From an uncultured Collinsella sp. (GTDB taxonomy: Bacteria; Actinomycetota; Coriobacteriia; Coriobacteriales; Coriobacteriaceae): a stretch of 64,000 bases of DNA. The position numbers were made by a program, and so were the translations under genes. The notes under the pieces are model-generated. The model was given only the letters and a program-made list of their open reading frames with translations, did not search any database and was not told the origin of the DNA. The stretch's first letter is position 1. Every line of letters starts with the position of its first letter. This document shows, in pieces, positions 5,845 through 34,256 of this stretch. The stretch spans positions 10,453 through 74,452 of the forward strand of contig CABQJK010000004.1 of assembly GCA_902464495.1 (NCBI GenBank), written 5' to 3'.

Positions 5845-5864
5845 CAAACCAAAAGCTGACCAAA
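5845..5864 (-). promoter_or_regulatory. Candidate competence box upstream of comEA (TTTGGTCAGCTTTTGGTTTG)
   Basis: Identical to 34237-34256 upstream of yraN-comM-dprA. Confidence 0.75.
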
Positions 5865-5939
5865 ACCTTACGAAATAATGTCCATTTATTCAGGCACACG
5901 TCAGCAAATGAACACTTAGCCGCAAAATGCCCAGATAGC

Positions 5940-5972
5940 AAAAGACCGACGATGCAGGCGCATCGTCGGTCT
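5940..5972 (-). terminator. Terminator after thiI, upstream of the comEA promoter region
   Basis: 13-bp perfect stem agaccgacgatgc/gcatcgtcggtct with a short U-run on -. Confidence 0.75.
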
Positions 5973-5982
5973 ATGCACAAAT

Positions 5983-7227
5983 TTACTCGTGATCTTGGTA
6001 AATCTCACGCGGAGCAAGCTCCGAATGTTTGCGTTTTAAGGTCTTAGGGGCCTTATACGTGTTGCTCTCGAAGTCGATGTACTCGGTCTGCTTGAGTAAG
6101 CGCTCAATCATCTCCTCGTGATCGAACAGCTCCCAGGCCTCGTGAACGGCATCGAGCTTGGCATGCGTCTCGGGACGGCGCGGCATAAACAGCGTGCAGC
6201 AGTCGGGAGCGGCCTCAGTCGAGATATCGAACGTACCGATCTCCTCGGCGCGTGCGATGATCTCCTGCTTGTCCGAACCGATGAGAGGACGGAACACGGG
6301 GATCTTCACGGCCTCGTTAACGGCCATGATGTTCTCAAGCGTCTGGGAGGCAACCTGCCCAAGCGATTCGCCCGTAACGATGGCCTTGGCACCCTCGATG
6401 TGTGCAATGCGCTCAGCAACCGAATACATAATGCGGCGATACATGATCACGCGCAGGTTGCTGGGACAGGTGACCGAAATCTCACGCTGGCAGTCGCCAA
6501 ACGGCACCACGTACAGGCGGCCGATCTGGACACCCGGCTCAAGCGCACGGATGATGTCCTGCACCAAATACTCACTCGTATCGGGCGTCTGCGGACGACC
6601 GGAGAAATGTACCGGCACGCAAACCGCGCCGCGGCGCGCGAGCATCCAGGTCGCCACCGGAGAATCGATACCCGACGACAGCAGCGTCACGACCTTGCCG
6701 GCAGAACCCACCGGCAGACCGCCCACGCCGCGCTCGGAGCGCGCGTACACATAAACGCTACCCTGGACCACCAGTACGTGCACCATCGCATCGGGGTCGT
6801 GCATTTGAACCTTTTTATCGGGAAAGGCCTCACACAGCACCTCGCCCACCTGACGATTGATATCGATCGAGGTGAGCTCATAGTCAGTATTGGAGCGCTT
6901 GGCGTGCACCTTAAACGAATCGAAGGAACCAAACTCGCGCAGCGCCTTCACGGCAGCGGCGCAGTACTCCTGCGGGTCGCGGTTGGTATGATACGCCAAA
7001 GACACACGGGCAACGCCGGGGACGGTGCGGATGACACGCGCCGCCTCGTCGGCCTGATGCTCGTTAAAGGTCACGAGGATATAACCGGAAATTCGAGACA
7101 CGGCATTCACGGAAAAGGCGGCCAAGGCCGCCTTGATGTTATCCATGAGGATATGCTCAAAATGCGCGCGGTTCTTGCCCTTCAGTCCAACCTCGTGATA
7201 GTGGACCAGGCAGACGCGAGCTGCCAT
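5983..7227 (-). CDS. thiI: tRNA 4-thiouridine synthase ThiI (no rhodanese domain)
   Basis: EVGLKGKNR, THUMP domain, PP-loop SSGIDS, GESLGQVASQT, DCC. Confidence 0.95.
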   Translation of the reverse strand: MAARVCLVHYHEVGLKGKNRAHFEHILMDNIKAALAAFSVNAVSRISGYILVTFNEHQADEAARVIRTVPGVARVSLAYHTNRDPQEYCAAAVKALREFGSFDSFKVHAKRSNTDYELTSIDINRQVGEVLCEAFPDKKVQMHDPDAMVHVLVVQGSVYVYARSERGVGGLPVGSAGKVVTLLSSGIDSPVATWMLARRGAVCVPVHFSGRPQTPDTSEYLVQDIIRALEPGVQIGRLYVVPFGDCQREISVTCPSNLRVIMYRRIMYSVAERIAHIEGAKAIVTGESLGQVASQTLENIMAVNEAVKIPVFRPLIGSDKQEIIARAEEIGTFDISTEAAPDCCTLFMPRRPETHAKLDAVHEAWELFDHEEMIERLLKQTEYIDFESNTYKAPKTLKRKHSELAPREIYQDHE

Positions 7228-7509
7228 TTAGGCTTCAGCAACCTTATGGCCGAGCGCCTTCTCGTAACGGGCCTCGTCGTAAGAGATGTCGCCGTCGACA
7301 ATCTCGTCCATAGCCATCGAGATGGTATCGGCACCGGAAAGCCCGATGGTGATGTCATCGACATCCTGGACGGCAAGCACGCGGTTGTGCTGGCCACGCA
7401 GCATGCTATTGATGTCGCAGGCGCGCTTGGAGGCAAGCGAAGCAAGCAGGAAGCGGTTATGATCGGTCTTCTCCAGAAGATCGTCAATGCAAGGCTTTAC
7501 AACGGACAC
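7228..7509 (-). CDS. rpoZ: RNA polymerase omega subunit
   Basis: P.IDDLLEK...RFLLASLASKRA; follows gmk. Confidence 0.92.
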   Translation of the reverse strand: MSVVKPCIDDLLEKTDHNRFLLASLASKRACDINSMLRGQHNRVLAVQDVDDITIGLSGADTISMAMDEIVDGDISYDEARYEKALGHKVAEA

Positions 7510-7514
7510 GGACC

Positions 7515-8084
7515 TCAGATCCTTTCATGCATATCGAGAACGCGAACGAGCTCATCGGTCGCGCGGTCGAGATCGTCATTCACCACGACGTCGTCGTAGC
7601 GGTCGGCAAGGGCAAGCTCATCGGCGGCGTTTGCCATACGCAGCTCAATCGTCTCGGGCGTCTCGGTACCGCGACCGACTAGACGCTCGCGGAGCACCTC
7701 AAGCGAAGGCGGCTTGATAAAGATCAGCACGGCCTCGGGGAAACGCTCCTTCACCTGCAGGGCGCCCTGGACATCGATCTCCAAAATCAGAGACGAGCCC
7801 GAGGCGAGCTTGGATGTGACCTCGCTCACCAACGTGCCGTAGCAGTTACCGTGGACCTCGGCCCACTCAACAAACTCACCGTTTGCCACGCGGCGGTCGA
7901 ACTCCTCGCGCGTCAGAAAAAAGTAGTTGACGCCGTCGACCTCACCTTTGCGTGGTGCTCGCGTGGTAGCCGAAACCGTCAGACCCAGGTTCGAGCGGCG
8001 CTCGCGCACACGAGTGACGAGCGTACCCTTGCCTGCGCCTGACGGTCCAGAAATCACAAAGAGCTTGGAATCCTGAGCGCTCAC
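7515..8084 (-). CDS. gmk: Guanylate kinase
   Basis: SGPSGAGKGT, TTRAPRKGEVDGVNY, EIDVQGA. Confidence 0.97.
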   Translation of the reverse strand: MSAQDSKLFVISGPSGAGKGTLVTRVRERRSNLGLTVSATTRAPRKGEVDGVNYFFLTREEFDRRVANGEFVEWAEVHGNCYGTLVSEVTSKLASGSSLILEIDVQGALQVKERFPEAVLIFIKPPSLEVLRERLVGRGTETPETIELRMANAADELALADRYDDVVVNDDLDRATDELVRVLDMHERI

Positions 8085-8393
8085 TTATTTGGTCAGCTGC
8101 TCGAGGAGCTGCTCGCGCTGACGGACACCGAGGCCCTGGACGCGACGAGTAGCGGAGATACCGAGCTCCTCCATGATCTTGGCGGCCTTGGCCTTGCCAT
8201 AACCGGGGAGAGACTCGATGAGGGTGGAAACCTTCATGCGGGAAGCGATGGGGTCATCGGAGTTGAGCACGGACTCGAGGGACTTCTCGCCCTTCTTGAT
8301 CTGCTCGCGAAGCTCAGCGCGGGCGTGACGTGCGGCAGCAGCCTTCTCAAGAGCCTGCTTGCGCTGCTCGTCGGTAAGCTGAGGGAGTGCCAT
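8085..8393 (-). CDS. mihF: Actinobacterial integration host factor mIHF
   Basis: MALPQLTDEQRKQALEKAAAAR...ESLPGYGKAKA..IMEELGIS; pyrF-mihF-gmk-rpoZ order. Confidence 0.95.
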   Translation of the reverse strand: MALPQLTDEQRKQALEKAAAARHARAELREQIKKGEKSLESVLNSDDPIASRMKVSTLIESLPGYGKAKAAKIMEELGISATRRVQGLGVRQREQLLEQLTK

Positions 8394-8632
8394 TCGTACC
8401 TCCAAATAGTTGGGTTATATCTGATTCAATAATTGGCATTTTAGCACGTAGAACGTACAAAATGCCTAATCGCGGCTCCATAGGTTAGACGATACCCGCA
8501 AAAAGTGCAATATACTGCGCCCAAAGTTAAGCCCCTGACCTGCGATTCCACACAAAGGATGGGAAAGTTTACGCAGGCACAGGGGCTATTTTGTGCTAAT
8601 GAGACCCAAAAGTGGTGACTTAGGGGAATCTT

Positions 8633-9349
8633 TTACGCGACGTTTTCGACCAGCTCGGCGACAATGGCGTCAAAGGCGGCAACCGGATCGTCGGCACCGG
8701 TGATGGGACGGCCCACCACAATGTGGCTTGCGCCACGCTCGATAGCCTGGGAAGGCGTCGCCACGCGGGACTGGTCACCAAGGGCGGCACCCACCGGACG
8801 CACACCCGGAGTCACGATCAGGGCATCAGGACCCAGCAGCTCACGCATGTCGTGAGCCTCCATCGGTGAGCACACGATGCCATCGATGCCGTTGGCCTGA
8901 GCAAGCTTTGCCAAGCGGGCGGCCTCCTCGGCCACGGGAGACTCGACGCCGATCTCGCTCAAGGCATCCTGATTCATGCTCGTGAGCACGGTGATGGCGA
9001 CGAGCTTGGCGCGGTCCCCACGCGCCTCTTCGGCACCCTCGCGGCAGGCAGCGAGCATAGCACCCGAGCCCAGGCCGTGGACCGAAAGCAGGTCGGCACC
9101 GGCAAGCGAGGCCGAGCGGGCAGCGCCGCGCACCTGATGCGGAATGTCATGGAACTTAAGGTCGAGGAATACCTTAAAGCCAAGGTCCTTAAAGGTCTTG
9201 ACGATCTGGGGACCCTCAGCGTAATAGAGCGTCATGCCGACCTTGAGCCAGGCGGCATGGCCCGAAAGCTCGTGGGCGAGCTCGAGCGCGCGCTCACGGT
9301 CGCAGTCGAGGGCGACGATAACACGGTCGCGGGCATCATTCTCTAGCAT
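8633..9349 (-). CDS. pyrF: Orotidine-5'-phosphate decarboxylase
   Basis: IVALD, DLKFHDIP, VTPGVR, VVGRPI. Confidence 0.97.
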   Translation of the reverse strand: MLENDARDRVIVALDCDRERALELAHELSGHAAWLKVGMTLYYAEGPQIVKTFKDLGFKVFLDLKFHDIPHQVRGAARSASLAGADLLSVHGLGSGAMLAACREGAEEARGDRAKLVAITVLTSMNQDALSEIGVESPVAEEAARLAKLAQANGIDGIVCSPMEAHDMRELLGPDALIVTPGVRPVGAALGDQSRVATPSQAIERGASHIVVGRPITGADDPVAAFDAIVAELVENVA

Positions 9350-10266
9350 TCGAAAGCACCCACCAGCTCGTTGATGTCCTTTACGCCCTGGGACTCGGCC
9401 CAGGCCTCGAGCTCATGCGCGATCTTAAGCGAAGCACACGGATCGACGAAGTTGGCCATGCCGACCGACACGCAGGTGGCGCCGGCCAGGATAAACTCAG
9501 CCGCATCCTCGCCAGTCATGACACCGCCGACACCGTTGATGGGGATATCGACGGCCTGGGCAACCTCCCAGACCATGCGCACGGCGATGTGGTGGCACAG
9601 CGGGCCCGAAAGGCCGCCCTTGGGCTTGGCCACGCGGGACTTGCGGGTATGGACGTCGATGGCCATGCCCTGGATGGAGTTGATGACCGAAAGGCCGTCG
9701 GCGCCGGCAGCCTCGAGGGCCTTGGCGATCTCGGCGACGTTGACCGGCGCCATCTTCACGAACAGCGGCTTATCGGTCACCTTGCGGCAAGCAGCCATAA
9801 CGGAAGAGGCGCCCTCGGGCGTGGAGCCCATGGCGGCACCGCCGGCGGCGATATTAGGGCAGCTCACGTTGATCTCGTAGCCGGCAGCCCAGGGGCACAG
9901 CTCGACATACATCTCGAGTGCGCGGACAAACTCGTCAACGGAGTGACCGGCAACCTGACAGATGACCTGGCAGCCGTCCTTGGACAGCTGTTCGAGCCAC
10001 GGACCGGACTCGCGGGCAAAGGCGGCCACGCCGGGGTTCTGAAGACCCACGGAGTTGATCATACCGCCGGGAATCTCGGCCATGCGGGGCGCGGGATTGC
10101 CGGGCCAGGGCTCGGCGGCACAGCCCTTGGTGGTAATGGCACCCAGCTGGGAAACATCAAAGAAGTTCTGGAACTGCCAACCGTAGCCAAAGGTACCGGC
10201 TGCGGTGTTAATGGGGTTCTGCATCTTGACGCCGCCGAAATCGACGGCCATGTTCACGGTACCCAC
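9343..10266 (-). CDS. pyrD: Dihydroorotate dehydrogenase 1B catalytic subunit (start 10266 GTG or 10251 ATG)
   Basis: AAGTFGYG, GNPAPR, NSVGLQNPG, EINVSCPN, GGLSG. Confidence 0.95.
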   Translation of the reverse strand: MGTVNMAVDFGGVKMQNPINTAAGTFGYGWQFQNFFDVSQLGAITTKGCAAEPWPGNPAPRMAEIPGGMINSVGLQNPGVAAFARESGPWLEQLSKDGCQVICQVAGHSVDEFVRALEMYVELCPWAAGYEINVSCPNIAAGGAAMGSTPEGASSVMAACRKVTDKPLFVKMAPVNVAEIAKALEAAGADGLSVINSIQGMAIDVHTRKSRVAKPKGGLSGPLCHHIAVRMVWEVAQAVDIPINGVGGVMTGEDAAEFILAGATCVSVGMANFVDPCASLKIAHELEAWAESQGVKDINELVGAFEC

Positions 10267-11057
10267 TAGAAGACCACCACCTTGGAAGCATCGAACACGG
10301 GGCCGCACATACAAGCACCCTTCATACCGTCGACCGTCTCGACATTGCAGGTGTTGCAGGCGCCAAAGCCACAGCTCATCATGCGCTCGAGCGACACCTC
10401 GCAGTACACACCGGCCTCGGCGGCAGCGGCGGCGACCTTCTTCATCATGACGGCGGGGCCGCAGCTGGCGACGTAGTCGTAGCCGCCCTCTCCAAGCAGC
10501 TCGGCTGCCGGATCGGTGCAAAAACCGTGCGTGCCGAGCGAACCGTCGTCGGTGCACACGTTAACCGTGGCGCCCAGCGCACGGAACTCATCGACACCCA
10601 CGACTTTGGAAGCGGTGCCGAAGCCCAGGCACACGTCCACATCAACACCCTGCTCGGCAAGCATGCCGGCAAGACACAGCACAGGCGGAACGCCGATGCC
10701 ACCGGCGACGAGCAGTGCCTTCCTGGTGCCCTCGGGTACCATCCAGCCACGGCCACCGGGGCCCAACAGGTTAGAGGTGGAGCCAGGGCCCATCTGGGAC
10801 AAACGGCGGGTATCGTCGCCCACGACGGCGTACCACAGCTCGACGGTGCCGGCCTCGGCGTCGGCGCGGTAGAAACTCAAGGGCACACGAAGCAGAGAAG
10901 ACGCATCGCCGGGGACGGCGATGTTCACAAACTGACCGGGCTTGAGCGCACTTGCAAGCTTGGGGGCCGAGATGACGAGCGAGAAGATGCCGTCGGCGAT
11001 CTCCCGGTTCGAGACGACCTCGAAGTCGTGCATGCGTGCAGTGGAAGGTGTGGGCAT
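10266..11057 (-). CDS. pyrK: Dihydroorotate dehydrogenase electron transfer subunit
   Basis: PGQFV, AGGIGVPP, SLERMMSCGFGACNTC...CMCGPVF [2Fe-2S] motif. Confidence 0.95.
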   Translation of the reverse strand: MPTPSTARMHDFEVVSNREIADGIFSLVISAPKLASALKPGQFVNIAVPGDASSLLRVPLSFYRADAEAGTVELWYAVVGDDTRRLSQMGPGSTSNLLGPGGRGWMVPEGTRKALLVAGGIGVPPVLCLAGMLAEQGVDVDVCLGFGTASKVVGVDEFRALGATVNVCTDDGSLGTHGFCTDPAAELLGEGGYDYVASCGPAVMMKKVAAAAAEAGVYCEVSLERMMSCGFGACNTCNVETVDGMKGACMCGPVFDASKVVVF

Positions 11058-11149
11058 AGACGCTCCAATCCCCCATGCGGTTGCATGGTCTAAACGAACA
11101 GAAAGCGCGGCACCGCAAGGGCGCCGCGCACAAAAGCGATAAGGCTATG

Positions 11150-12422
11150 CTAGCAGATGCAGCCGTCGGCGAGCGTCTGCTTGCCACCGACAAATACATC
11201 GGTGGCACGACCGGTGAGCGTGCGGCCGGCAAAACCGGAGTTCTCGGCGCGCGACTCGTAACCGTCCTCGCCAACCGTCCAGGTTGCGGAGGGGTCGAAC
11301 ACGGTCAGGTCGGCGACAGAGCCCGCCTTGACCTGAACCTGATCGAGGCCCAGAATCTCACGCGGCTTGATGGCCATGAGCTCGACCATGCGGCTCACGC
11401 TCATCTTGCCCGTGTTGACCAGCTCAGTGAGCACGAGCGACAGCGAAGTCTCGAGGCCAATCATTCCAAAGGGCGCGAGCTCGAACTCGCGGGCCTTCTC
11501 CCACGGGGTGTGGGGAGCGTGGTCGGTAACGATAGCGTCGACGGTACCGTCGATGACACCCTGACGGATGGCCTCGGCATCCTCGTCGGTGCGCAGCGGC
11601 GGATTGACCTTGAGCGAGGTGTTGTAGGTCTCGTCCAGGTCGTTCTCGGTCAGGAACATGTGGTGCGGGGTGGCCTCGCAGGTCACCTGGACACCGGCAG
11701 CCTTACCGGCACGCACGAGCTCCAGGCCATGAGCGGTGGAGATGTGCTGGATGTGCAGCTTGGCACCGGTCAGCTTGGCAATCTCGATGTCGCGGGCAAT
11801 CTGAAGCTCCTCGCCGGCGGCCGGCCAACCCTCGAGGGCCAGACGGGTCGAGACCTTGCCCTCGTTGATCTGGCCGTGGCCGACCAGATCCTCGTCCTGG
11901 CAGTGGCTCATAAAGACCTTGCCGAACATCTTGCCGTAGTCCATGCAGCGACGGAGCATGCCCGCACCCTGCACGCCGCGACCGTCATCGGTGAAGGCGA
12001 CGGCGCCGTGGGCGACCATATCGCCCATCTCGGACATAGCCTCGCCCTTAAGGCCGCGAGTCATAGCACCAGAAGGATAGACGCGGCAGTGGCCGACCTC
12101 GGCAGCGCGGGACTTGACGAACTCAACGACGGTTCCGTTATCGGTAACGGGGTCGGTGTTGGGCATGGCGCACACGCCGGTGAAGCCGCCCTTGGCAGCA
12201 GCGCGGGTGCCGCTCTCGATGTCCTCTTTGACCTCGTAGCCAGGCTCGCGAAGGTGAACGTGCATATCCACCAGGCCGGGGACGAGGTACTTGCCGGAAA
12301 GGTCGCGGACCTCGGCTCCCTCGACGGCGAGATTCTCGCCGACCTCGGCGATCTTATCGCCGTCAATCAGGACGTCAACGACACCGTCAAGCTCGACGGA
12401 CGGGTCGACGACGTGGGCATTC

Positions 12423-12439
<17 letters not shown>
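11150..12439 (-). CDS. pyrC: Dihydroorotase
   Basis: DMHVHLREPG, MPNT, KVNPPLR, TDHAPH. Confidence 0.96.
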
Positions 12440-13968
<1,529 letters not shown>

Positions 13969-13995
13969 TCACATGTCTTGACTGCTGACACAGTC

Positions 13996-14116
13996 AAAAA
14001 AATAGATGCCCGACCGCTCAAAGCGGACCAGACACCCACAGGAAGGGCTGCTCTTTGGCAGCTATGTAATTCCATGTGGGTATCTCGTACCCCTTTAATG
14101 GTCAAGGGATAGTGTA
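13996..14116 (-). promoter_or_regulatory. pyr leader: -10 TACACT plus PyrR-type attenuator (binding loop, antiterminator, terminator with U7)
   Basis: Mutually overlapping stems: binding loop 14072-14101, antiterminator arms 14070-14084/14031-14044, terminator 14004-14037 with A7 at 13996-14002. Confidence 0.8.
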
Positions 14117-14407
14117 GCCAACCTTGAGCTTAATTGCGAGCATAAATACAGAGCAATCCGTAAACGGAGCCCTACGCTCAATAAACCTATATATATTTGT
14201 GGGACGAGCTTGAAAACCTTGTTGCGAGCTGGCATAATCCCCCCTGCTGCACGCAAATCGGATCTACGTCCAGGGCCGTGGCGTGGGCACTATCGCCAAA
14301 AGAGAAATATCTCTGTGTAGATTGCGCACAGGGAGTGACTTCTGTGCTATAGTTCAGGCTTGTTTGTTAACGCGACATGTTCGTTTGTCGCCCAAGGAGG
14401 GTCAGTT

Positions 14408-14596
14408 ATGTCCAAAGTTTGCGAAGTTTGCGGTAAGCACCCCGTTGCCGGTCGCTCCATCAGCCACTCTCACCGCGTCACCAACCGTAAGTTCCGCCCC
14501 AACATCCAGCGCGTCTACGTCGTCGTCGATGGTCACCGTCGCAAGATGAACGTTTGCTCCACCTGCCTCAAGTCCGGCAAGGTTGCGCGCTCCTAA
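14408..14596 (+). CDS. rpmB: 50S ribosomal protein L28 (zinc-ribbon type)
   Basis: MSKVCEVCGK...SHSHRVTNRKFRPNIQ...CSTCLKSG; AAGGAGG SD. Confidence 0.97.
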   Translation: MSKVCEVCGKHPVAGRSISHSHRVTNRKFRPNIQRVYVVVDGHRRKMNVCSTCLKSGKVARS

Positions 14597-14664
14597 ATAA
14601 GGTCTTACCAACAAGTACCTCGGACTCTCCGGGTCAAAGACCTCGCGTTCATATAGAACTTACC

Positions 14665-14697
14665 AAAGGCGTCCTCCCCTACGGAGGGCGCCTTTTT
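14665..14697 (+). terminator. Terminator after rpmB
   Basis: aaaggcgtcctcc/ggagggcgccttt stem followed by T-run. Confidence 0.8.
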
Positions 14698-14823
14698 GCA
14701 CTCATTGGGGACGGATTTAAATGAGTGTTTGCGAATGTCAAAGGGATCCTAACCCAGCTGATATGCCTTGTAGCTTGACCTGCGCCCAATAATTGAGGCG
14801 ATGCGGCAGGCGGATCGTTTTGT

Positions 14824-14853
14824 TAAAACGCTTCAGTATATTGAAGCGTTTTA
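14824..14853. promoter_or_regulatory. Palindromic operator upstream of adhE
   Basis: TAAAACGCTTCA-gtatat-TGAAGCGTTTTA; extended -10 TGcTATCAT at 14897-14905. Confidence 0.6.
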
Positions 14854-14945
14854 GTGTGCCTTTTACGGGAATCTTACCGTTTACCGAATTATTTCTTGCT
14901 ATCATGCAAGCCGTAGGGTAAATCTCCGATCGCAAGGAGACACAA

Positions 14946-17594: not shown

Positions 17595-17611
17595 TTTTAG
17601 CACGGTTTTTA

Positions 17612-17650
17612 ACGGCGGGGGTGCACGGGTGTTTCACACACCCCCGCCGT
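17612..17650 (+). other. Intercistronic stem-loop between adhE and the kinase gene
   Basis: 12-bp perfect arms acggcgggggtg/cacccccgccgt, no U-tract. Confidence 0.6.
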
Positions 17651-17682
17651 CGCTTCTATCGCATCGTTGAAAGGATGCAACC

Positions 17683-18447: not shown

Positions 18448-18481
18448 TATCTGAGCGATTTATTTCGCATCGGAGGCACAA

Positions 18482-22803: not shown

Positions 22804-22828
22804 AAAACGAAAAAGCAATCCTTATGGG

Positions 22829-24915: not shown

Positions 24916-24917
24916 GA

Positions 24918-25712
24918 TTAAGCCTCCTCGGACTTGCTCAGTCCACCAAACCTACGGTCACGGCCCTGATAGGCCAAAATGGCGTCGACAAGGCCCCAAC
25001 GATCAAAGTCGGGCCAATAGGTATCGGTGACATAGAACTCGGAATAAGCCACCTGCCACAGCAGATAGTTCGAAAGGCGCAGCTCACCAGAGGTGCGAAT
25101 CACAAGCTCAGGATCGGGAAGACCGGCGGTATAGAGGTGGGAAGCCACCATATCGTCATCAATTGCAGCGGGATCGATCTTACCGGTGGCAGCGTCGAGT
25201 GCGATCTGACGGACAGCGCGGGTAATCTCGGCACGCGCGCCGTAGTTGACGGCAAGCGCCAGCGTCATACCGGTGTGATCGGCGCACTCGGCTAGACCGC
25301 GTTCAAAAACGTCGCGAGTCTTCTTGGGCAGCGCTGAAATATCACCCAAAAAGACAACACGCACGTTTTCGCGCTTCAGAAGCGGCAGCTCGTCGATAAA
25401 CGTCTTGGCAAACAGGTGCATCAAGACGTTGACCTCATGCTGCGGGCGGTTCCAGTTTTCGGTAGAAAACGCATAGGCCGAAAGCACGTCGACGCCCAGA
25501 CGCACGCAGGCGGTAATAATCTCGCGAAGGGAGACGATACCCGCCTTGTGGCCCTCGGTGCGTGCAAGACCACGCGACGTGGCCCAACGACCGTTGCCGT
25601 CCATGATGCACGAGATATGGTGCGGAATGTTATTGAGGTCAAGGTCGGAAAAACCGACGCCCGCAGGGGCGTCGGCAAAGTACTCGACCAGTTTATGCTC
25701 GTCGTATTGCAC
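24918..25712 (-). CDS. uppS: Undecaprenyl diphosphate synthase
   Basis: IMDGNGRW, AFSTENW, IRTSGELRLSNYLLWQ. Confidence 0.97.
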   Translation of the reverse strand: MQYDEHKLVEYFADAPAGVGFSDLDLNNIPHHISCIMDGNGRWATSRGLARTEGHKAGIVSLREIITACVRLGVDVLSAYAFSTENWNRPQHEVNVLMHLFAKTFIDELPLLKRENVRVVFLGDISALPKKTRDVFERGLAECADHTGMTLALAVNYGARAEITRAVRQIALDAATGKIDPAAIDDDMVASHLYTAGLPDPELVIRTSGELRLSNYLLWQVAYSEFYVTDTYWPDFDRWGLVDAILAYQGRDRRFGGLSKSEEA

Positions 25713-25713
25713 C

Positions 25714-26250
25714 TTAGATCTCCATGACCTCGGCTTCTTTTTCCTTCAGAAGCTCCTCGACCTTGGCGACATACTCATCGGTGTGCTTCTGGACCTTGGC
25801 CTGCTCGCGACGGACATCGTCCTCGGTGAGCTCCTCATCGCGCTCGAGCTTATTGTTGAAGTCGCGACGGATGTTACGGATAGACACCTTGGCCTGCTCG
25901 GCGTACTCGCGGCACTCCTTGACGAGCTCGCGACGGCGCTCCTCAGTGGGAGCCGGGAACGGAAGACGAACGACGGTGCCATCGGAGTTGGGGGTAATAC
26001 CCAGATCGGAAGCGCCGATGGCCTTGACGATAGCATTGATGAGTGCCTTGTCCCACGGCTCGATGAGCAGCATGTGGGCCTCGGGGGTCTTGACGGCGGC
26101 AACCTGCGTGACCGGCGTGGGAACACCGTAATAATCGACGGTGATGTCGGACAGAATGTTGGCATTGGCGCGGCCGGTACGGACCTTGGAGAAGTTATGC
26201 TTGAGGGACTCGAGCGACTTGTCCATATGGGCGGTGATGTTCTCTGCCAT
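25714..26250 (-). CDS. frr: Ribosome recycling factor
   Basis: VRTGRAN, VDYYG, TEERRRELVK, IRNIRRD. Confidence 0.97.
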   Translation of the reverse strand: MAENITAHMDKSLESLKHNFSKVRTGRANANILSDITVDYYGVPTPVTQVAAVKTPEAHMLLIEPWDKALINAIVKAIGASDLGITPNSDGTVVRLPFPAPTEERRRELVKECREYAEQAKVSIRNIRRDFNNKLERDEELTEDDVRREQAKVQKHTDEYVAKVEELLKEKEAEVMEI

Positions 26251-26252
26251 GC

Positions 26253-26975
26253 TTAATCCTCCTGATAGACGAGCGTGCCGACGGGCTCACCCGCGAGCGC
26301 GCGCTTGACGGTGTCCTCGCCATCGATGTTGAGGACCAAAATCGGCATACGGTTGTCCTGGCACAGTGCCGTAGCCGTGGAATCCATAACCTGCAGACCG
26401 CGGACGAGAACCTCGTGATAGGTAATCTTGTCAAAACGGACGGCATCGGCGCACTTGACGGGATCCTTGTCGTAGATGCCATCAACCTTGGTGGCTTTAA
26501 TCAGAATCTCGGCGCCGATCTCGCACGCACGAAGAGCCGCTGCGGTGTCGGTCGTAAAGTACGGATTGCCCGAACCGGCGGCAAAAATAACGACGTTGCC
26601 CTTGGAAAGGTGGTTGATGGCGCGACGGCGAATATAGGGCTCGCAGATCTCGTTCATCTGGATAGCGCTCATCACGCGGCAGGGAACATCGTTATGCTCG
26701 AAGGCATCCTGCAGGGCGAGCGCGTTCATAACGGTTGCCAGCATGCCCATGTAGTCGGCCTGAGCACGCTCCATGCCACCGGCAGCGCCGGCCATGCCGC
26801 GAAAAATGTTGCCGCCGCCGACAACGACGCCGACCTCATGGCCAACGGCGAGCAGCTCCTTGACCTGCTTGGCAAGATGGTCGGTAACTTTGGGGTCGAT
26901 GCCATATTGGCCGTCGCCCATCAGTGCTTCGCCGGAAAGCTTAAGAAGCACGCGTTTATATCGGATGTCGGACAA
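26253..26975 (-). CDS. pyrH: UMP kinase
   Basis: [25 protein letters not shown]. Confidence 0.97.
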
Positions 26976-27034
26976 AGCGATCCTCCTTTAATTAGACTTT
27001 CAATATGATATCAAAGGCTCTGATAAGAGCCATG

Positions 27035-27069
27035 AAAAAGCAGGCTGTGAGTAAAACCCACAGCCTGCT
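27035..27069 (-). terminator. Terminator after tsf
   Basis: agcaggctgtg/cacagcctgct stem with U-run on -. Confidence 0.8.
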
Positions 27070-27092
27070 CATTACCAGCTACAAGAGCTTAT

Positions 27093-27962
27093 TTACTCGC
27101 CACGGACCAGACGGTCAAAGGCAACGACGGTAATGGTGTCGCCGAGCTCCTTGGAGACCTGCTCAGCGTACTTCTTGATGGTGAGGGAGCTGTCCTTGAT
27201 GAACTCCTGCTCGGTGAGCACGGACTGCTTGTAGAACTTCTCCAGACGGCCAACAGCCATCTTCTCCTGGATAGCCTCGGGCTTGCCGGACTCGGCAGCC
27301 TGGGCCATGTAGATCTGCTTCTCGTGCTCGACGGTCTCGGCCGGAACCTGATCGCGGGTAGCGCAGATCGGTGCGACGGCGGCAACCTGAAGGGCAACGT
27401 CGTGAGCGAAGGTCTTGAAGGACTCAGCCTGAGCGGTCTCGACCTTCTCGAAGGCGAACTCGACGAGGACGCCGATCTTACCACCCATGTGGATGTAAGA
27501 AGCGAGCGCGCCGTTCTCGGCCTTGCGGGCAGCGAAGCGGGAGATCTTCATGTTCTCGCCCATGATGTGAATCATCTCGGTGAGCTCGGAGGAAACGGTC
27601 TCCTCGCCCATCGGCTTCTCGAGCAGAGCGTCGACGTCAGCAGGCTCGGTGGTAGCGACAACCTCAGCGACCTTAGAAGCAAAGCCGGTGAACTTGGCGT
27701 TGGAGCCAACGAAGTCTGTCTCGCAGGAGAGCTCGAGCAGAGCGCCGGTCTTGCCATCCTCGGAGACGAACGCGGCGACAGCGCCCTCGTTGGTCTCGCG
27801 GCCAGCCTTCTTGGCAGCCTTGGCGAGGCCGTTCTTACGCAGAACGTCGACAGCGGCGTCCATGTCGCCGTCAGCCTCGACGAGAGCCTTCTTGCACTCC
27901 ATCATCGGGGAGTCGGTCATCTCGCGGAGCTGCTTGACCATAGCGGCGGTAATCTGGGCCAT
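27093..27962 (-). CDS. tsf: Elongation factor Ts
   Basis: ITAAMVKQLREMT, MMECKKAL, CETDFV. Confidence 0.97.
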   Translation of the reverse strand: MAQITAAMVKQLREMTDSPMMECKKALVEADGDMDAAVDVLRKNGLAKAAKKAGRETNEGAVAAFVSEDGKTGALLELSCETDFVGSNAKFTGFASKVAEVVATTEPADVDALLEKPMGEETVSSELTEMIHIMGENMKISRFAARKAENGALASYIHMGGKIGVLVEFAFEKVETAQAESFKTFAHDVALQVAAVAPICATRDQVPAETVEHEKQIYMAQAAESGKPEAIQEKMAVGRLEKFYKQSVLTEQEFIKDSSLTIKKYAEQVSKELGDTITVVAFDRLVRGE

Positions 27963-28007
27963 TGTGGTTCCTTTCAAAGAGATGAAAAAGAATTAACTAA
28001 GACTGAT

Positions 28008-28736
28008 TTACTCGGCCTTGGGCTCAGCGGCCATCTCGGCCTCGGAGACCTGCTCCTTACCGGAGCCAGCGAGGCAGGCGTCAGCCATGAGCTCGCACAT
28101 AAGGGTGACAGCGGAGATAGCGTCATCGTTGCAGGGGATGCCGTACTCGACCTCGTCGGGATCGGAGTTGGTGTCGATCAGAGCGACGACGGGGATGTTC
28201 AGGCGCTGAGCCTCCTTGATGGCGTTCTCCTCGCGCTTAGTGTCGATGACGAAGAGAGCCTGGGGCAGACCCTTCATGTCGCGGGCGCCACCGAGGTTGG
28301 TCTGGAGCTTGGTGAGCTCCTTGCCGAGCACAGCCTGCTCCTTCTTGGGGAGCACTGCCATGCGGCCGTCCTCGACCATGGCCTCGAGCTCCTCCATGCG
28401 GTTGATGCGGGAGCGGATGGTGACGAAGTTGGTCAGCATACCGCCGAGCCAACGCTGGTTGATGTAAGGCATGTTGGCGCGCTCAGCAGCGTTCTTGACG
28501 GCCTCCTGAGCCTGCTTCTTGGTGCCGACGAACAGCACGTTGCCACCCTTGGCGACGTTCTTGACGAAGGTGTAGGCCTGGTCGGCGTCGAGGATGGTCT
28601 GCTTGAGGTCGAGGATGTAGATGCCGTTGCGCTCACCGAAGATGAACGGCTTCATCTTGGGGTTCCAGCGACGGGTCTGGTGACCGAAGTGGCAGCCGGC
28701 CTCGAGCAGGGTGCGGATATTAATCTTGGTAGCCAT
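28008..28736 (-). CDS. rpsB: 30S ribosomal protein S2
   Basis: [29 protein letters not shown]. Confidence 0.98.
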
Positions 28737-28739
28737 GTT

Positions 28740-28886
28740 AAACCTCCTGTGGTTTGCCTCCGCGCGGGGTCATCCTCCAAAACCAACCCGGACATGTGCT
28801 ACCAAAGCCCGGGCACCACGGTATGAAGTAGCCGCGCGTGCGTGATAAAAACATGTTGCCGTGAAGCAACCCGATGAATGATAGCA
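28740..28886 (-). promoter_or_regulatory. rpsB promoter (extended -10 TGcTATCAT) and long structured leader, probably the S2 autoregulatory RNA
   Basis: atgatagca at 28878-28886; cgcgcgg/ccgcgcg pairing followed by GGAGGC near the SD. Confidence 0.5.
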
Positions 28887-28955
28887 GGAATGCTTCTTCC
28901 TGCCAACCCGCAATCAAAACCACACACCTGAGTGCGGCGCGGGACGTCCCAGCCA

Positions 28956-29876
28956 CTATTCGCCGCGGGGATGGGCTTGAGCCACGGCACGTTTGAGCCG
29001 ATCGGGCGTGAGGTGCGTGTAGATCTGCGTCGTGGACAGGCTCGCATGACCCAGCAGCTCTTGAACCGAGCGCAGGTCCGCACCGCCCTCGAGCAAGTCG
29101 GTCGCAAAGGTATGGCGCATCGCATGCGGGGCGATGTCGGCCGGAATGCCGGCGAGTGTCGCCAGAGTATGGAACCGCCGCCTGAGCATAGCGGCACTCA
29201 TGCGATTACCGCGCGCCGATATAAGCAGCGGATGCGGCCCGGTAGCGGAGTCACGGCGCTTTGCCTGAGCGAGCAACTCCGGCCTCCCCTCCTCAATATA
29301 GAGACGCGTCGCCTCGAGCGCACGACGATACAGAGGGACGATACGTTCTTTGCTCCCCTTGCCCCACAGGCGCAGCGTGCGTTCGGACCACGCAATGGAC
29401 TCCACATTGAGTGCTGCGAGCTCAGAGATACGGGCGCCCGAGGCATAGAGCAGCTCGAGCATCGCCGCATCGCGCAGTCCCGCGGGTGTTGAGGTATCAG
29501 GCGTCTTGAGCAGCGCCTCCACCTGTTGGGTCGTCAGCACACCGGGTAGATCGCGCGGGAGCTTGGGCGAGGAAATTGCCGAGACCACATCGCCCTCCAC
29601 GACCCCCTCGGCAGCCATCCACCGATAGAGCGAGCGAACGGCAGACAGGTGTGCCGCAAGCGTTCGGGGAGCCACCTGCCCACGCGAAAGCTCGGCAAGA
29701 TAGCGACGAATGGTGCGCACGTCGGCAGCGAAAGCATCTATATCCTCGCGCTCGCACCAGGCAGCAAAGCGCTCCAGCCTCGAGCCATAGGCCGTCACCG
29801 TGTTGGGAGAAAGCCCCTCGACACGTGAGATATAGGCGATAAACGAGTCGACGGTGTCGTACAGGTCAAAGGCTAT
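28956..29876 (-). CDS. xerC: Tyrosine recombinase XerC/XerD family (inferred non-canonical ATA start)
   Basis: Catalytic R (GARISE), K (GKGSKER), HAMRH, LGH, TQIY; SAM-like N-terminal helix continues in frame upstream of the first GTG. Confidence 0.88.
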   Translation of the reverse strand: MAFDLYDTVDSFIAYISRVEGLSPNTVTAYGSRLERFAAWCEREDIDAFAADVRTIRRYLAELSRGQVAPRTLAAHLSAVRSLYRWMAAEGVVEGDVVSAISSPKLPRDLPGVLTTQQVEALLKTPDTSTPAGLRDAAMLELLYASGARISELAALNVESIAWSERTLRLWGKGSKERIVPLYRRALEATRLYIEEGRPELLAQAKRRDSATGPHPLLISARGNRMSAAMLRRRFHTLATLAGIPADIAPHAMRHTFATDLLEGGADLRSVQELLGHASLSTTQIYTHLTPDRLKRAVAQAHPRGE

Positions 29877-31210
29877 GACCGGTCGCCTCCAAACAGATCG
29901 GGGCGAGTGGCCAGATAGGCATCAAGGGCCTCGAGCGCACGGTCCGCATAGGCCTGGTAGCGGTCGCGCTTGCTGCGGCGCTTACCATCCTCGAGTGGCG
30001 GCACCAGGCCAAAGTTGACATGCATAGGCTGATAGCCCACGGTGGCAGGATCGGTCGCATAGCCCACGAGCGCACCCAGGGCGCCCACACGCGGCAACTC
30101 GACGCCCGCGGCACCGATAGCCTCGGCATAGGTGTTGAGCGCCGCGAGCAGACCTGTCGCCACGGCTTCCATGTACCCCTCGGTGCCGGTGATCTGACCG
30201 GCCAGGCGCACGCCGGTACCGGGCACGGCAAAGGTGCCATCGAGCACGTGCGGGGCGTCGACAAAGGTATTGCGGTGCATGACACCGTAGCGGAAGAACT
30301 CAGCGTTCTCCAGGCCCGGCACCATATGGAAGACGCGCTTCTGCTCGCCAAAGGTCAGGTTGGTCTGGAAGCCCACCAGGTTATAGGCGGTCTTCTCCTT
30401 GTTCTCGGCACGCAGCTGAATCGCCGCCCAGGGGCGACGTCCGGTACGCGGGTCGGTGAGGCCGACGGGCTTCATGGCACCAAAGCGGATGGCATCCTTG
30501 CCGGTGCGCGCGACCTCCTCGGCGGGCTGGCAGGCCTGGAACAGATCGCCACCCTCAAAGTCTTTGAGCACCACGCGGTCGGCCGTGGTAAGCGCCTCGA
30601 TAAAGGCCTCGTACTCCTCCTTGTTGAGCGGAGCGTTGAGATAGTCGCCGCTCCCCTGCTCCTCGTAGCGCGACTGCGAGAACAGCACGTCCATATCGAG
30701 CGTGGAGGCATCGACGATCGGCGCCGCGGCATCGAAGAACGCAAGGGCGTCGCCACCGACGAGCTTCATGACCTCTTCGCTCAGCGCAGGTGAACACAGC
30801 GGGCCCGCGGCAATGACCACGTGGCCCTCGGGAATCTGCGTGACCTCGCCGTGCACGACCTCGATATTGGGACGAGCGGCAACTTCGGCCTCGACAAGCT
30901 CGGAAAACTTGACGCGATCGACCGCTAAGGCGCCACCGGCGGGAACAGCCGCGCGATGGGCGCAATCGAGCAGAACTGAACCCATGCGCTCAAGCTCGGC
31001 CTTCAGCAAACCAGCCGCGGAATCCGGACGGGTCGACTTAAACGAATTGGAGCAGACGAGCTCTGCCAGGTGATCGGTATGGTGGGCCGGGGAGCTCACC
31101 TGGGGGCGCATCTCGCACAGCTTTACGGCAAACCCGCGATCTGCCAGCTGGATCGCGCACTCCGAACCCGCCAGACCGCCACCGATAACTGTCACCTGAT
31201 CGAACTGCAT
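29873..31210 (-). CDS. trmFO: Folate-dependent tRNA m5U54 methyltransferase TrmFO
   Basis: IGGGLAGSE, AELVCSNS, FFDAAAPIV, YGVMHRNTF, AGQITGTEGY. Confidence 0.96.
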   Translation of the reverse strand: MQFDQVTVIGGGLAGSECAIQLADRGFAVKLCEMRPQVSSPAHHTDHLAELVCSNSFKSTRPDSAAGLLKAELERMGSVLLDCAHRAAVPAGGALAVDRVKFSELVEAEVAARPNIEVVHGEVTQIPEGHVVIAAGPLCSPALSEEVMKLVGGDALAFFDAAAPIVDASTLDMDVLFSQSRYEEQGSGDYLNAPLNKEEYEAFIEALTTADRVVLKDFEGGDLFQACQPAEEVARTGKDAIRFGAMKPVGLTDPRTGRRPWAAIQLRAENKEKTAYNLVGFQTNLTFGEQKRVFHMVPGLENAEFFRYGVMHRNTFVDAPHVLDGTFAVPGTGVRLAGQITGTEGYMEAVATGLLAALNTYAEAIGAAGVELPRVGALGALVGYATDPATVGYQPMHVNFGLVPPLEDGKRRSKRDRYQAYADRALEALDAYLATRPDLFGGDRS

Positions 31211-31224
31211 CTGCAAACACCTTT

Positions 31225-32160
31225 CTAATTGACACGTTTTCCATTGTGACCGAAGGGTGTCTGGGCGTGAAGGGCAAACTTGGAGGGCGCATACCTTCCA
31301 TCCATCATGCGCTCGATAAGGCCCTCGAGTTCAAGCGAACCCAAGAGTTTGAGTACGCCGACAGCATCGAGCGAGACGAGCGCCGCGATGTCGTCGACCT
31401 TGAGCGGAGAGGCGATGAGCGCATGCATCACGGTCTGCTGCGTTGAATCCAGGTCGGCAATGCCGGGAGCATCGGGGCGCGAGTAGCGCAGGGTTCCATA
31501 GATGCGTGAGATAGCCATCTCGATAGATTCCTCGTCGATGATGCAGCAGGCACCGTTCGCAATGAGGTAATTCGTGCCACGCGACTCGGGCGATAGGATC
31601 GACCCCGGTACGGCAAGAAGTTCTCGCCCCAAATCCATAGCAGCCTCGGCTGTAGAAAACGTCCCGGAAGGCATACCCGCCTCGGATACAAAGAGGGCTT
31701 GCGACAGGGCCGCGATCACGCGATTGCGGCGCGGAAAGGCAAACTTGCGAGGACCCATGCCCCACGGGGAGATCGACACGACCGCGCCACCCGTATCGAG
31801 CGTGCGCGTAATAAGCCCCGCGCTCGAGCGCGGATAGACCACGTCGGCGCCCGTCCCCAGCACCACGACGTGTTTGCCGCCAGCGTTGACCGCAGCCCAA
31901 CCCGAGGCCTGGTCGCAACCGACCGCGCCGCCCGAAACTACCGTCACTCCCGCCTCGACCGCCACCTTTGCCGCAAGCTCTGCCACGGCAAGACCATACG
32001 GCGAGGCTTTGCGCGCGCCGATGATGGAGAGCGCGGGCGTCGAAAGCACCTCGGGGTTGCCGCGCACATAGAGCGTCTGGGGTACATCAGAAAGCTCCAA
32101 AACAGTCTCGGGAAACAACGCATCACCTGGATGCAGCTCAAAGGTCCCCTCTGCCATCAT
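31225..32160 (-). CDS. dprA: DNA processing protein DprA (Rossmann fold plus C-terminal wHTH)
   Basis: IIGARKASPYG, VVSGGAVGCD, FPRRNRVIAALS, GTNYLIANGA. Confidence 0.95.
   Translation of the reverse strand: MMAEGTFELHPGDALFPETVLELSDVPQTLYVRGNPEVLSTPALSIIGARKASPYGLAVAELAAKVAVEAGVTVVSGGAVGCDQASGWAAVNAGGKHVVVLGTGADVVYPRSSAGLITRTLDTGGAVVSISPWGMGPRKFAFPRRNRVIAALSQALFVSEAGMPSGTFSTAEAAMDLGRELLAVPGSILSPESRGTNYLIANGACCIIDEESIEMAISRIYGTLRYSRPDAPGIADLDSTQQTVMHALIASPLKVDDIAALVSLDAVGVLKLLGSLELEGLIERMMDGRYAPSKFALHAQTPFGHNGKRVN
31243..31271 (-). promoter_or_regulatory. Possible internal promoter for trmFO-xerC inside the dprA 3' end (TTCACG-17-CACAAT)
   Basis: Near-consensus hexamers with 17-nt spacing. 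Confidence 0.3.
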
Positions 32161-33680
32161 TGGTCCCTCCTTCCCTGATACATCGCCGCCTCGAGCACGT
32201 GGTCCTGCGTCACTTGCTCGCTCTCGGCGACATCTGCGATCGTGCGCGCAATGCGAACCAGGCGCACGATGCCGCGGCCCGTGAGATGCGTGCGCTTCGA
32301 CAGGCCGAGCACACACTTCTCCGCCGCATCATCGAGCTCAAAGGTCGAAACGACGCCGTCAATGGACCGCGTCTCATCATCCTCGGCCTCGGCATCCGCA
32401 TCGTCCATACGGGACTCGCGCCAGGCGCGAAAGGCGCGACCGCGCACAACGTAGTCACGTAACTCGGCCGACGACATACCCTCCGCTCCCTCGATAATCA
32501 CCTGGGGGTCGGGACGGATCACATCGATCATCATGTCGATACGGTCGGCCAAAGGACCGCGCAGTTTAGACCGATAGCGCTCGACCATCGCCGCCGAGCA
32601 GCGACACGGCACCTCGCGATCACCCAAGAAGCCGCAGGGGCAGGGATTGCTCGCAGCCAGCAGCTGAAAGCGCGACGGGAAGGTAAAGGCCCCGTCGACG
32701 CGTACGATCCTCACATAGCCGCGCTCGATGGGCTGACGCAGCGTCTGCAGCACACCCGTGGGAAACTCGGCAAGCTCGTCCAAAAAGAGCACGCCGCCAT
32801 GAGCAAGGCTGATCTCACCCGGATGCACCGGGCGTCCTCCGCCAATGAGGCCCGCCGTTGAAATGCTGTGATGGGGACTGCGGAAGGGCCGGTGTCCCGC
32901 CAACAAGCCATCAATGTTCTCACCCAAAACCGAATGGATGCACAGCGCCTCCTGTTGATCCTCAACGGAAAGCTCGGGCAGGATGCCGGTCATACGACGC
33001 GCGAGCATCGTCTTGCCCGATCCCGGGGACCCGATCATAAGCAAACCGAGCTCACCCGCTGCCGCCAGCGCCATGCCGCGTTTGGCAACCTCCTGCCCTA
33101 GCACGTCGGCATAGTCGAGTTCGGGCTCAAAGGTCGCCTCAACACCCTCGGAATCCAAGTAGTGCCGCGCGGCATCGCCCATGCCATGGGCAAGCTGAGA
33201 CAAATGATCGATGAATCCGCAATCAACGCCCGCAAGCGGCACATGCTGATCGGACCTGCCGGCGATAAAGGACAGCCCCATATCACGCGCCAATAGCTGA
33301 AACGCCACCTCGCCCTTGACAGGAAGCACCGTACCGTCCAAGCCAAGCTCACCAGCGATAAGACAACGATCGAGGTTGTCGCGGGGAATCTGACCATCGG
33401 CCGCCAATACCGCGATTGCGATGGGCAGATCAAAGCCGCTACCGGTTTTGCGAATATCGCCAGGCGCCAGATTGACCGTAATGCCCGAGCGCGGGATCTC
33501 GAACCCGGCGGAGCGCATCGCGCAGCGAATACGACCGCGTGACTCCATCACCTCCATACTCGGAATGCCGAGCATCTGAATACCCGGAACGCCGCCGGCA
33601 AGCGAGACCTCGACCGTGACGGGAATCGCCTCGACGCCGCGGATGCAGGCCGCGTGAACGGCAAACGTCTCGAACGCCAT
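32157..33680 (-). CDS. comM: ComM/YifB AAA+ helicase (Mg-chelatase-like)
   Basis: TVNLAPGDIRKTGSGFDLPIA, GSPGSGKT, RPFRSPHHS, LFLDE, ASNPCPCG. Confidence 0.95.
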   Translation of the reverse strand: MAFETFAVHAACIRGVEAIPVTVEVSLAGGVPGIQMLGIPSMEVMESRGRIRCAMRSAGFEIPRSGITVNLAPGDIRKTGSGFDLPIAIAVLAADGQIPRDNLDRCLIAGELGLDGTVLPVKGEVAFQLLARDMGLSFIAGRSDQHVPLAGVDCGFIDHLSQLAHGMGDAARHYLDSEGVEATFEPELDYADVLGQEVAKRGMALAAAGELGLLMIGSPGSGKTMLARRMTGILPELSVEDQQEALCIHSVLGENIDGLLAGHRPFRSPHHSISTAGLIGGGRPVHPGEISLAHGGVLFLDELAEFPTGVLQTLRQPIERGYVRIVRVDGAFTFPSRFQLLAASNPCPCGFLGDREVPCRCSAAMVERYRSKLRGPLADRIDMMIDVIRPDPQVIIEGAEGMSSAELRDYVVRGRAFRAWRESRMDDADAEAEDDETRSIDGVVSTFELDDAAEKCVLGLSKRTHLTGRGIVRLVRIARTIADVAESEQVTQDHVLEAAMYQGRRDQ

Positions 33681-34165
33681 CACGACACCTGCCAATCGAA
33701 CGCGTTGTACTGATGCTCGATCTCGGCGATATGCCCGCCACGAATGGTGACACCCACGGCATCGAAGCGAATCGCCTTGAGCGGATAATGCTCCATGAGA
33801 TAGCAACTTGCGATGCGGCGGTAGCGGCGTTGCTTTTGGGCGTCCACGGCCTCCTCGGGAAAGACCCGCGTGCTGCAATCCAGTGCAACGCGTCTGGTCT
33901 TGACCTCGGCCATCACCACGACATCGTCGAGCTCATCGAGCAGCACCAGATCGGCCTCGCCCTCGGAGCAACGATATCCCTGCTCCAGCAAGGTGTAGCC
34001 GCGCTCGTTAAAGTAGTCGATGGTGATCAGCTCGCCCAGCATGCCCAGCTCGCGGGGACTGAGTCCCTTGATAAACTCAGGCGTCATCGCCCCGCAGTCG
34101 AGCTCGCCGTTTTCCCAACGCTCCTTGAGCTGCTGCGTCTTGCTCTTTTTGCTTGCGGCACTCAT
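33680..34165 (-). CDS. yraN: YraN family nuclease (UPF0102)
   Basis: G.LGE...Y, GEADLV, EVKTR, EAVDAQKQRR, RFDAV; AAGGAG SD. Confidence 0.92.
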   Translation of the reverse strand: MSAASKKSKTQQLKERWENGELDCGAMTPEFIKGLSPRELGMLGELITIDYFNERGYTLLEQGYRCSEGEADLVLLDELDDVVVMAEVKTRRVALDCSTRVFPEEAVDAQKQRRYRRIASCYLMEHYPLKAIRFDAVGVTIRGGHIAEIEHQYNAFDWQVS

Positions 34166-34236
34166 GGGGTCTCCTTTCCCGCACGCTGCATTGCCCCGAT
34201 GATGAGGGCACCTTTCGTGCGGGTAAGTACCGGAAG

Positions 34237-34256
34237 CAAACCAAAAGCTGACCAAA
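34237..34256 (-). promoter_or_regulatory. Candidate competence box upstream of yraN-comM-dprA (TTTGGTCAGCTTTTGGTTTG)
   Basis: Identical to 5845-5864. Confidence 0.75.

Follow-up and report, generated by a model that had tools for sequence, protein, structure and literature searches.

Are the natural-transformation genes of Collinsella controlled by a common regulator, and which protein might it be? The question is raised by a 64,000-nucleotide (nt) stretch of DNA from an uncultured Collinsella sp. (contig CABQJK010000004.1; hereafter the window), in which an identical 20-bp box, TTTGGTCAGCTTTTGGTTTG, lies upstream of two operons, comEA-comEC and yraN-comM-dprA. An earlier account of the window, made from its letters alone (the sequence-only reading), had taken the box as the mark of a competence regulon, and this interpretation is supported by the analysis reported here. 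We found that the box belongs to a longer array of 11-bp direct repeats that, on comparative evidence, is very probably a real operator. We also consider it likely, with less assurance, that the array belongs to a class-wide competence regulon activated by a SARP-like protein; it would then be the operator of a transcription activator that co-regulates the natural-transformation genes in Coriobacteriia.

The box is part of a repeat array at both operons

The box was located at 5845-5864 and 34237-34256, on the minus strand in both places, 76 nt from the ATG of comEA and 71 nt from that of yraN; the shared orientation, the coordinates and the distances given in the sequence-only reading were all confirmed. 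The window held no further match at up to three mismatches, and matches were present in 0 of 100 shuffles. The strong hairpin terminators described upstream of both operons were borne out by folds of -28.0 and -30.4 kcal/mol. The reported direct repeat and its 11-bp period also stood, but the element exceeds 20 bp: an extra degenerate unit lies 11 bp upstream of the 20-mer at both loci, and yraN has two further units downstream. Similarly, the claim that no TAnnnT separates box from start codon holds for strict matches, but weak -10-like hexamers (CACGAT and CATCAT) are found there at conserved distances. The features of the two loci, with the identities of comEA, comEC, yraN, comM and dprA taken from Pfam, are as follows.

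5843..5875, minus strand: comEA array of three 11-bp units with cores CGTAAG, GGTCAG and GGTTTG, which holds the 20-mer at 5845-5864
5789..5794, minus strand: putative weak -10, CACGAT, 50 nt past the last core of the comEA array
5058..5768, minus strand: comEA, SLBB and HhH domains, 236 aa, intact
2758..5073, minus strand: comEC, Competence and MBL domains, open frame of 771 aa with an unrefined start codon
5940..5972, minus strand: hairpin terminator 3' of thiI and 5' of the comEA array
34213..34267, minus strand: yraN array of five 11-bp units with cores TGACGG, GGTCAG, GGTTTG, GGTACT and GCACGA, which holds the 20-mer at 34237-34256
34199..34204, minus strand: putative -10, CATCAT, exactly 10 nt past the fifth core of the yraN array
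33680..34165, minus strand: yraN, UPF0102, 161 aa
32157..33677, minus strand: comM, YifB/Mg-chelatase-like, 506 aa
31225..32316, minus strand: dprA, DNA_processg_A and DprA_WH domains, open frame whose true start is probably further downstream
34264..34305, minus strand: hairpin terminator 3' of rnhB, its T tract overlapping the first unit of the yraN array

Arrays across the genome precede uptake, pilus and recombination genes

The genome that holds the window (2.19 Mb, 60% GC, 92% complete) carries intact comEA, comEC, dprA and pilus genes. Throughout this genome the element consists of three to five direct repeats with an 11-bp period and a unit of about TTTGGTCAGCT. A tied-unit matrix, controlled against the reversed genome, gave 21 sites above the best control score of 19.4. 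Seventeen of these were training sites, and two of the other four lay upstream of the gene for the SARP-like protein. Besides the DNA-uptake operons comEA-comEC and yraN-comM-dprA, arrays precede recA-recX, rpsF-ssb (labeled from translation) and the pilus operon cpaB-cpaE-cpaF-tadB-tadC, which runs on over a contig overlap into flp and tadE genes. The sequence-only reading had proposed scanning the genome for the box at such genes; the Tad/Flp operon, recA and rpsF-ssb were matched, but comFC was not. With that exception, a shared operator was found at uptake, pilus and recombination genes. No array was found at uvrB, lexA or pafB in this genome.

Arrays also precede five AbiEi/REase-like paralogs of two families, one of them the second gene behind an unknown open reading frame (ORF); their Pfam matches were below cut-off, and in the Atlas, AbiEi families occur on 11-28% of the members of similar clusters. 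Further targets are a RAYT-like transposase (below cut-off), a thioester-domain pilin-like gene, a gene for a helix-turn-helix (HTH)-WYL-like protein and small unknown ORFs, and some arrays have no gene behind them. In GTDB representatives, the exact 20-mer occurred at no fewer than 120 loci; among the 80 listed, 77 were titled Collinsella, indicating a lineage-restricted sequence, and 60 preceded yraN, 19 comEA and 1 a nuclease-like gene.

The array is retained in relatives while its unit drifts

To follow the array beyond this genome, we collected upstream sequence for comEA (30 genomes, the best of 42), comM/yraN (29/30), recA (30/30), cpaB (24/30) and rpsF (30/30), together with housekeeping controls. 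We ran a de novo motif search, using nothing from this genome, on 42 regions that came from 14 members of the family not in its closest clade. The motif recovered was TGTTAG-N5-GGCAAG-N5-TGTAAG, which ends 70-74 nt 5' of the comEA ATG in 13 of the 14. The log-likelihood ratio was 511, versus 302-314 for shuffled input in a Gibbs control that was lenient because it had fewer restarts than the real run. In held-out regions, core spacings of 11, 22 and 33 were present in 27, 27 and 23 of 69, versus 6, 10 and 6 of 101 controls; spacings of 21 and 32 were likewise raised. The array was thus kept in the promoters of relatives, the conservation that the sequence-only reading had looked to, and in orthologous promoters its distance from the -10 stays the same even where the sequence between units has changed.

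A motif-free test gave a similar picture. In 24 of 29 genomes, target promoters resembled one another more than they resembled controls, and in 26 of 30 the resemblance inside the genome exceeded that to the corresponding promoters in sister genomes. These comparisons indicate that the unit drifts jointly across the target promoters inside each genome. In distant families the promoters still have a unit in common, though a different one: G035 has its motif at all five promoters, each time 17 nt from YAnnnT, and G075 and G081 have a shared unit at three of five. The exact degenerate pattern, present in 10-16 copies only in this genome and in 8 of 18 genomes of the same genus (0-3 copies in 111 of 112 others), is therefore unable to trace the motif across the class.

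Promoter geometry at many sites resembles that of SARP-activated promoters

We examined the distance from the repeats to the -10. Counted from the third core, the distance to an nAnnnT hexamer in this genome is 21 or 32 nt (10 + 11n) at 6 of 16 sites and 1 nt more at another 2; a core stands 10 nt from the -10 at yraN, recA, rpsF-ssb and three others of the 16, as well as at 8 of 11 loci from basal families. In 57 regions of relatives (recA, yraN and basal loci, with yraN in the training set), core-to-(-10) distances of 10, 21 and 32 nt occurred in 21, 23 and 17, versus 9, 6 and 4 of 74 controls. The peak at 10 nt (N10) for rpsF (15/23) was set aside because a conserved housekeeping promoter may cause it. 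A second promoter class was also apparent: in this genome, comEA, cpaB and an unknown gene have the hexamer at a distance of 50-51 nt, where comEA and cpaB of relatives also peak (16 and 9 of 50).

In SARP promoters, the repeats are spaced by 11 or 22 bp and the 3' one stands 8 bp from the -10; the afsS promoter has a -35 of TTCAGC and a 20-bp spacer (PMC10936776, PMC11301090). By our arithmetic, the 8-bp gap corresponds to a core 10 nt from the -10, as at the 10-nt sites above. Pho boxes are also 11-bp repeats about 10 nt above the -10. The PafBC motif, tGTCgg(N10)tA(N3)T, has N10 spacing as well (PMC8635444). N10 geometry therefore narrows the family of the binder and names no protein.

A SARP-like protein is the candidate activator

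The sequence-only reading had left the choice between a dedicated activator and an alternative sigma factor. The results favored a winged-helix activator, disfavored an alternative sigma factor and pointed to one candidate, encoded by the sole BTAD gene found in the genome.

G000:C30:11446-14445, minus strand: gene for the SARP-like protein, 999 aa

The protein has an N-terminal STAND-like P-loop near residue 45, a helical middle and, at about residues 740-990, a C-terminal SARP domain made up of an OmpR-type HTH and BTAD. BTAD scored 33.3 bits (cut-off 22.1), and Trans_reg_C scored 22.8 in one scan and 26.2 in another (cut-off 26.2). A 26-sequence profile of the protein matched EmbR (E 1.6e-14), MalT (E 6.5e-7) and AfsR. 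The predicted model (pLDDT 85.7) gave a TM of 0.78 to the SARP domain of AfsR and was similar overall to STAND proteins; a single-sequence PDB search with the C-terminal domain returned nothing significant. The gene was found at a single locus in 116 of 121 Coriobacteriia genomes. Outside the class the C-terminal third alone was matched, in 22 of 93 genomes (a tally that includes the unpublished G121, G165 and G202, which enter no other result), and the P-loop is degenerate in several distant orthologs.

Arrays are also found beside the gene itself. In this genome, it is preceded at about 90 and 340 nt by two sites in reverse orientation; among family relatives, arrays scoring at least 16 were present there in reverse orientation in 6 of 12 versus 0 of 12 in forward orientation, in a comparison where 6 of 27 loci escaped the ORF finder. 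The next gene downstream in basal families is secA (labeled from translation), and in 8 of 11 basal genomes two or three repeats, 10 nt and a -10 follow immediately past its stop codon. A covariation between recognition helix and operator (Val after 'LY' with G at core position 5, in 24/41 versus 12/115 cores) amounts to at most two independent events, because four of the five genomes form one clade, and is a lead only.

These observations suggest the following mechanism. The genome's one SARP-domain protein would place one OmpR-type winged helix on each unit, side by side and cooperatively. Where the last unit is 10 nt from the -10 (yraN, the upstream recA promoter and rpsF-ssb), it would recruit RNA polymerase with the housekeeping sigma factor to a promoter without a usable -35, as AfsR does; where the gap is 50-51 nt, at comEA and cpaB, activation would come from upstream. 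Before a signal arrives, the protein is probably kept inactive by its N-terminal P-loop and helical domains, and the reverse-oriented arrays before its own gene suggest feedback. The nuclease-like paralogs, the RAYT and the pilin-like gene share the promoter and may be passengers expressed upon DNA entry; the AbiEi/REase-like and RAYT-like genes are possibly selfish genes timed to competence. We would give even chances to a more far-reaching form of this proposal: that the STAND-NTPase/SARP fusion is a class-wide, self-regulating master competence switch, the first named in Actinomycetota, whose helix and operator co-evolve fast and whose promoter was copied by selfish nuclease and transposase genes that fire when DNA enters.

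Three other candidates for the regulator were rejected. The HTH-WYL-like gene with an array (on C22) was found in 4 of 42 genomes with a single-protein query and was treated as a target. An HTH_17/BldC-like regulator was represented by two sub-threshold matches, neither close to the regulon. No divergent gene upstream of cpaB was conserved in 24 loci, where an RsgA-like gene on the same strand is usually found.

In 11 basal Coriobacteriia, a conserved non-coding stretch of about 200-250 nt separates the SARP-like gene from secA (L230:1259-1620, plus strand; L231:5840-6200, plus strand; L232, L233, L234, L235, L241, L243, L244, L245 and L248). It sits behind a repeat-N10-(-10) promoter, contains the near-invariant GAGGGGCAC and is predicted to form a long stem, of whose 45 pairs 23 show compensatory changes (nine sequences). 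It had no Rfam match at gathering scores or by E-value and was not found in the Collinsella genome studied here. The stretch is a possible undescribed small RNA.

Transcript levels of the yraN-comM-dprA operon

Expression was assessed with RNA sequencing data from three raw-read runs of one study on a related strain (394 differences in 9 kb); a further run available as Logan contigs, X1, was uninformative for expression. In all, four of 24 listed runs were covered. Sense depth over yraN-comM-dprA was 37-73, compared with 261-392 at rnhB, 109-204 at trmFO, more than 2,200 at rpsB and about 14,000 at rplS. The drop from 261-392 to 37-73 takes place across the hairpin at 34264-34305. The operon is thus near-silent in culture, which fits an off state. 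Depth rises again at the end of dprA (31225-31310), and this increase at trmFO speaks for a separate trmFO promoter. Together with a TAGAAT upstream of holA at 2720-2725, this fits the suggestion in the sequence-only reading that holA and trmFO have their own promoters.

Weighing the alternatives

Several observations count against a SARP-activated, class-wide regulon. Roughly one in two strong sites is followed by a non-competence gene, an unknown gene or none at all, and the comFC-like gene of this genome is without an array. The link between arrays and the upstream region of the SARP-like gene is weak across the class (16/29 and 18/28), and its type of DNA-binding domain is also present in ten OmpR-family response regulators of the genome. 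In the family of this genome, the comEA and cpaB promoters do not have the SARP distance. G047 and G039 showed no clear shared motif at the target promoters, and the matrix of this genome scored the yraN/rpsF regions of relatives at a median of 1.4, versus 0.2-1.2 for intergenic controls. As the genomes are kin, p-values overstate. Finally, 5' ends were listed for rpsB and rplS, and none among the rows listed for the yraN promoter.

The same competence-type regulon could be bound by another protein, most likely an OmpR/PhoB-family response regulator with the same repeat geometry, of which Pho boxes are an example. The case for the SARP-like protein is circumstantial, and the genome encodes the ten response regulators with Trans_reg_C. 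However, none of the 21 strong sites in this genome has a response-regulator gene directly downstream, whereas arrays flank the SARP-like gene in two distinct genomic contexts, and its DNA-binding region is only 38-45% identical to that of family relatives beyond the closest clade, as would suit an operator that drifts. We regard this explanation as unlikely. A regulon of the PafBC DNA-damage type that includes DNA-uptake genes appears less likely again. An adjacent pafB/pafC-like pair is present in the genome, the PafBC motif has an equal N10 spacing, recA has two promoters, and the proximal unit reads TGTCGG or TGTCAG in some relatives. PafBC, though, recognizes a single element with a near-invariant GTC (PMC8635444), whereas the arrays have three to five units, the proximal ones mostly without GTC, and uvrB and lexA have no array. 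In addition, the search for an adjacent WYL pair found none in 10 of 45 genomes, including nine of nine genomes of family f2 and G005; of these ten, G035, G075 and G005 have clear arrays.

If mobile nuclease or RAYT elements had scattered the repeat, without a dedicated regulator, this would account for the arrays before five AbiEi/REase-like paralogs and a RAYT, for an identical 39-bp stretch common to three sites and for two sites that lie between inverted repeats. The sequence-only reading had itself named a generic repeat as grounds for rejecting its proposal. Against such a repeat, 79 of the 80 listed exact matches precede yraN or comEA, and orthologous promoters hold the array at its fixed distance from the -10 although the sequence between units has diverged; we consider this origin very improbable. 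The lack of a good -35 and the weak -10 hexamers in this genome might point to the promoter of an alternative sigma factor; against this, the arrays vary from two to five units, and basal and f2 genomes have a TAnnnT of the housekeeping type as the hexamer downstream. This is the least credible of the explanations considered. A LexA SOS regulon was rejected: the LexA SOS box is a palindromic GAAC-N4-GTTC and the array is a direct repeat, and SOS-type boxes at recA and lexA are separate from the array.

Relation to known systems

Activation by the SARP-like protein would represent a known activator-operator type in an undescribed role. S. coelicolor AfsR, acting at afsS, and M. tuberculosis EmbR likewise have an OmpR-type HTH followed by BTAD, and SARP promoters have direct repeats of 11-bp period, as the arrays do, and a gap of 8 bp between the 3' repeat and the -10 (PMC10936776), which recurs at part of the array promoters. 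The afsS -35, TTCAGC, resembles the array unit GGTCAGC. The large AfsR-type SARPs carry the SARP domain N-terminal to NOD and TPR, whereas here the order is reversed, with the NTPase N-terminal and the SARP domain C-terminal. The arrays of three to five units and the promoter class with a 50-51-nt gap are also unlike known SARP systems, and the proposed targets are DNA-uptake genes, where those of known SARPs are antibiotic or cell-wall genes. MalT-type STAND activators have a similar N-terminal P-loop region, helical repeats and C-terminal DNA-binding domain, but the effector of MalT is a LuxR HTH and not a SARP domain.

The regulons of ComK, ComX and Sxy-CRP hold comEA/EC, pilus genes, dprA, comM, ssb and recA. 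The regulon proposed here is like those of B. subtilis ComK, streptococcal ComX and Haemophilus/Vibrio Sxy-CRP in content and in the separate LexA box kept at recA, but its operator and the family of its candidate regulator are unrelated to theirs (regulator types in PMC8467076). The machinery is of the same type as in Micrococcus luteus, a Tad/Flp pilus with ComEA/EC, where tad genes are required for transformation (PMC4322843) and com expression is influenced by an HTH_17 gene that neighbors cpaB (PMC8467076); in this genome, HTH_17 had no match above cut-off. According to a 2026 paper, the upstream competence regulators of M. luteus, the model for Actinomycetota, are still unidentified (PMC12849477). 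Mycobacterial PafBC is alike in its N10 spacing, sigma adaptation and control of a recA promoter (PMC8635444), and differs in its single GTC element, heterodimeric WYL proteins and repair-gene regulon. The full-text literature searched, with most subscription journals and supplements outside its coverage, yielded no description of a Coriobacteriia competence regulon, of this motif or of a SARP/STAND competence regulator. Now that there is a probable operator, a set of targets and a single candidate gene, the question of the competence regulator becomes testable with a single construct. If the proposal is correct, SARP and STAND proteins enter competence control, and DNA uptake would be inducible in common gut bacteria that long had no genetic tools (PMC9734109).

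Further observations

The recA region (L010:2448-2576) has two promoters, array-N10-TATGAT and TTGACC-N17-TATTAT, the latter with an SOS-type box in its spacer; this box was seen in the recA regions of most relatives. The pafB/pafC-like pair adjoins a DinG-like helicase gene (L203:3917-5843, minus strand; labeled from translation), and PafBC-type promoters are few in the genome, with four intergenic matches. The sole radA/sms family match was in a DnaB-like gene (G000:C14:11582-11902) and far below cut-off; in a genome 92% complete, the search turned up no radA.

Arrays stand back to back upstream of cpaB (L009:848-912), where the inverted unit recurs in several relatives, and face each other between prfA- and prmC-like genes (L014:2669-2742). 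The nuclease-like and RAYT loci behind arrays are L003:2965-3924, L006:2334-3329, L008:1463-2536, L005:2839-3990, L007:2719-3573 and L011:2810-3607; three more paralogs of one AbiEi/REase-like family are without a strong site. On the minus strand, arrays also precede a protein with an HTH and a degenerate WYL-like domain (L004:3728-4510), a thioester-domain surface protein with SpaA repeats (L012:4498-7926) and a small operon for predicted secreted or surface proteins (L013:2903-6076).

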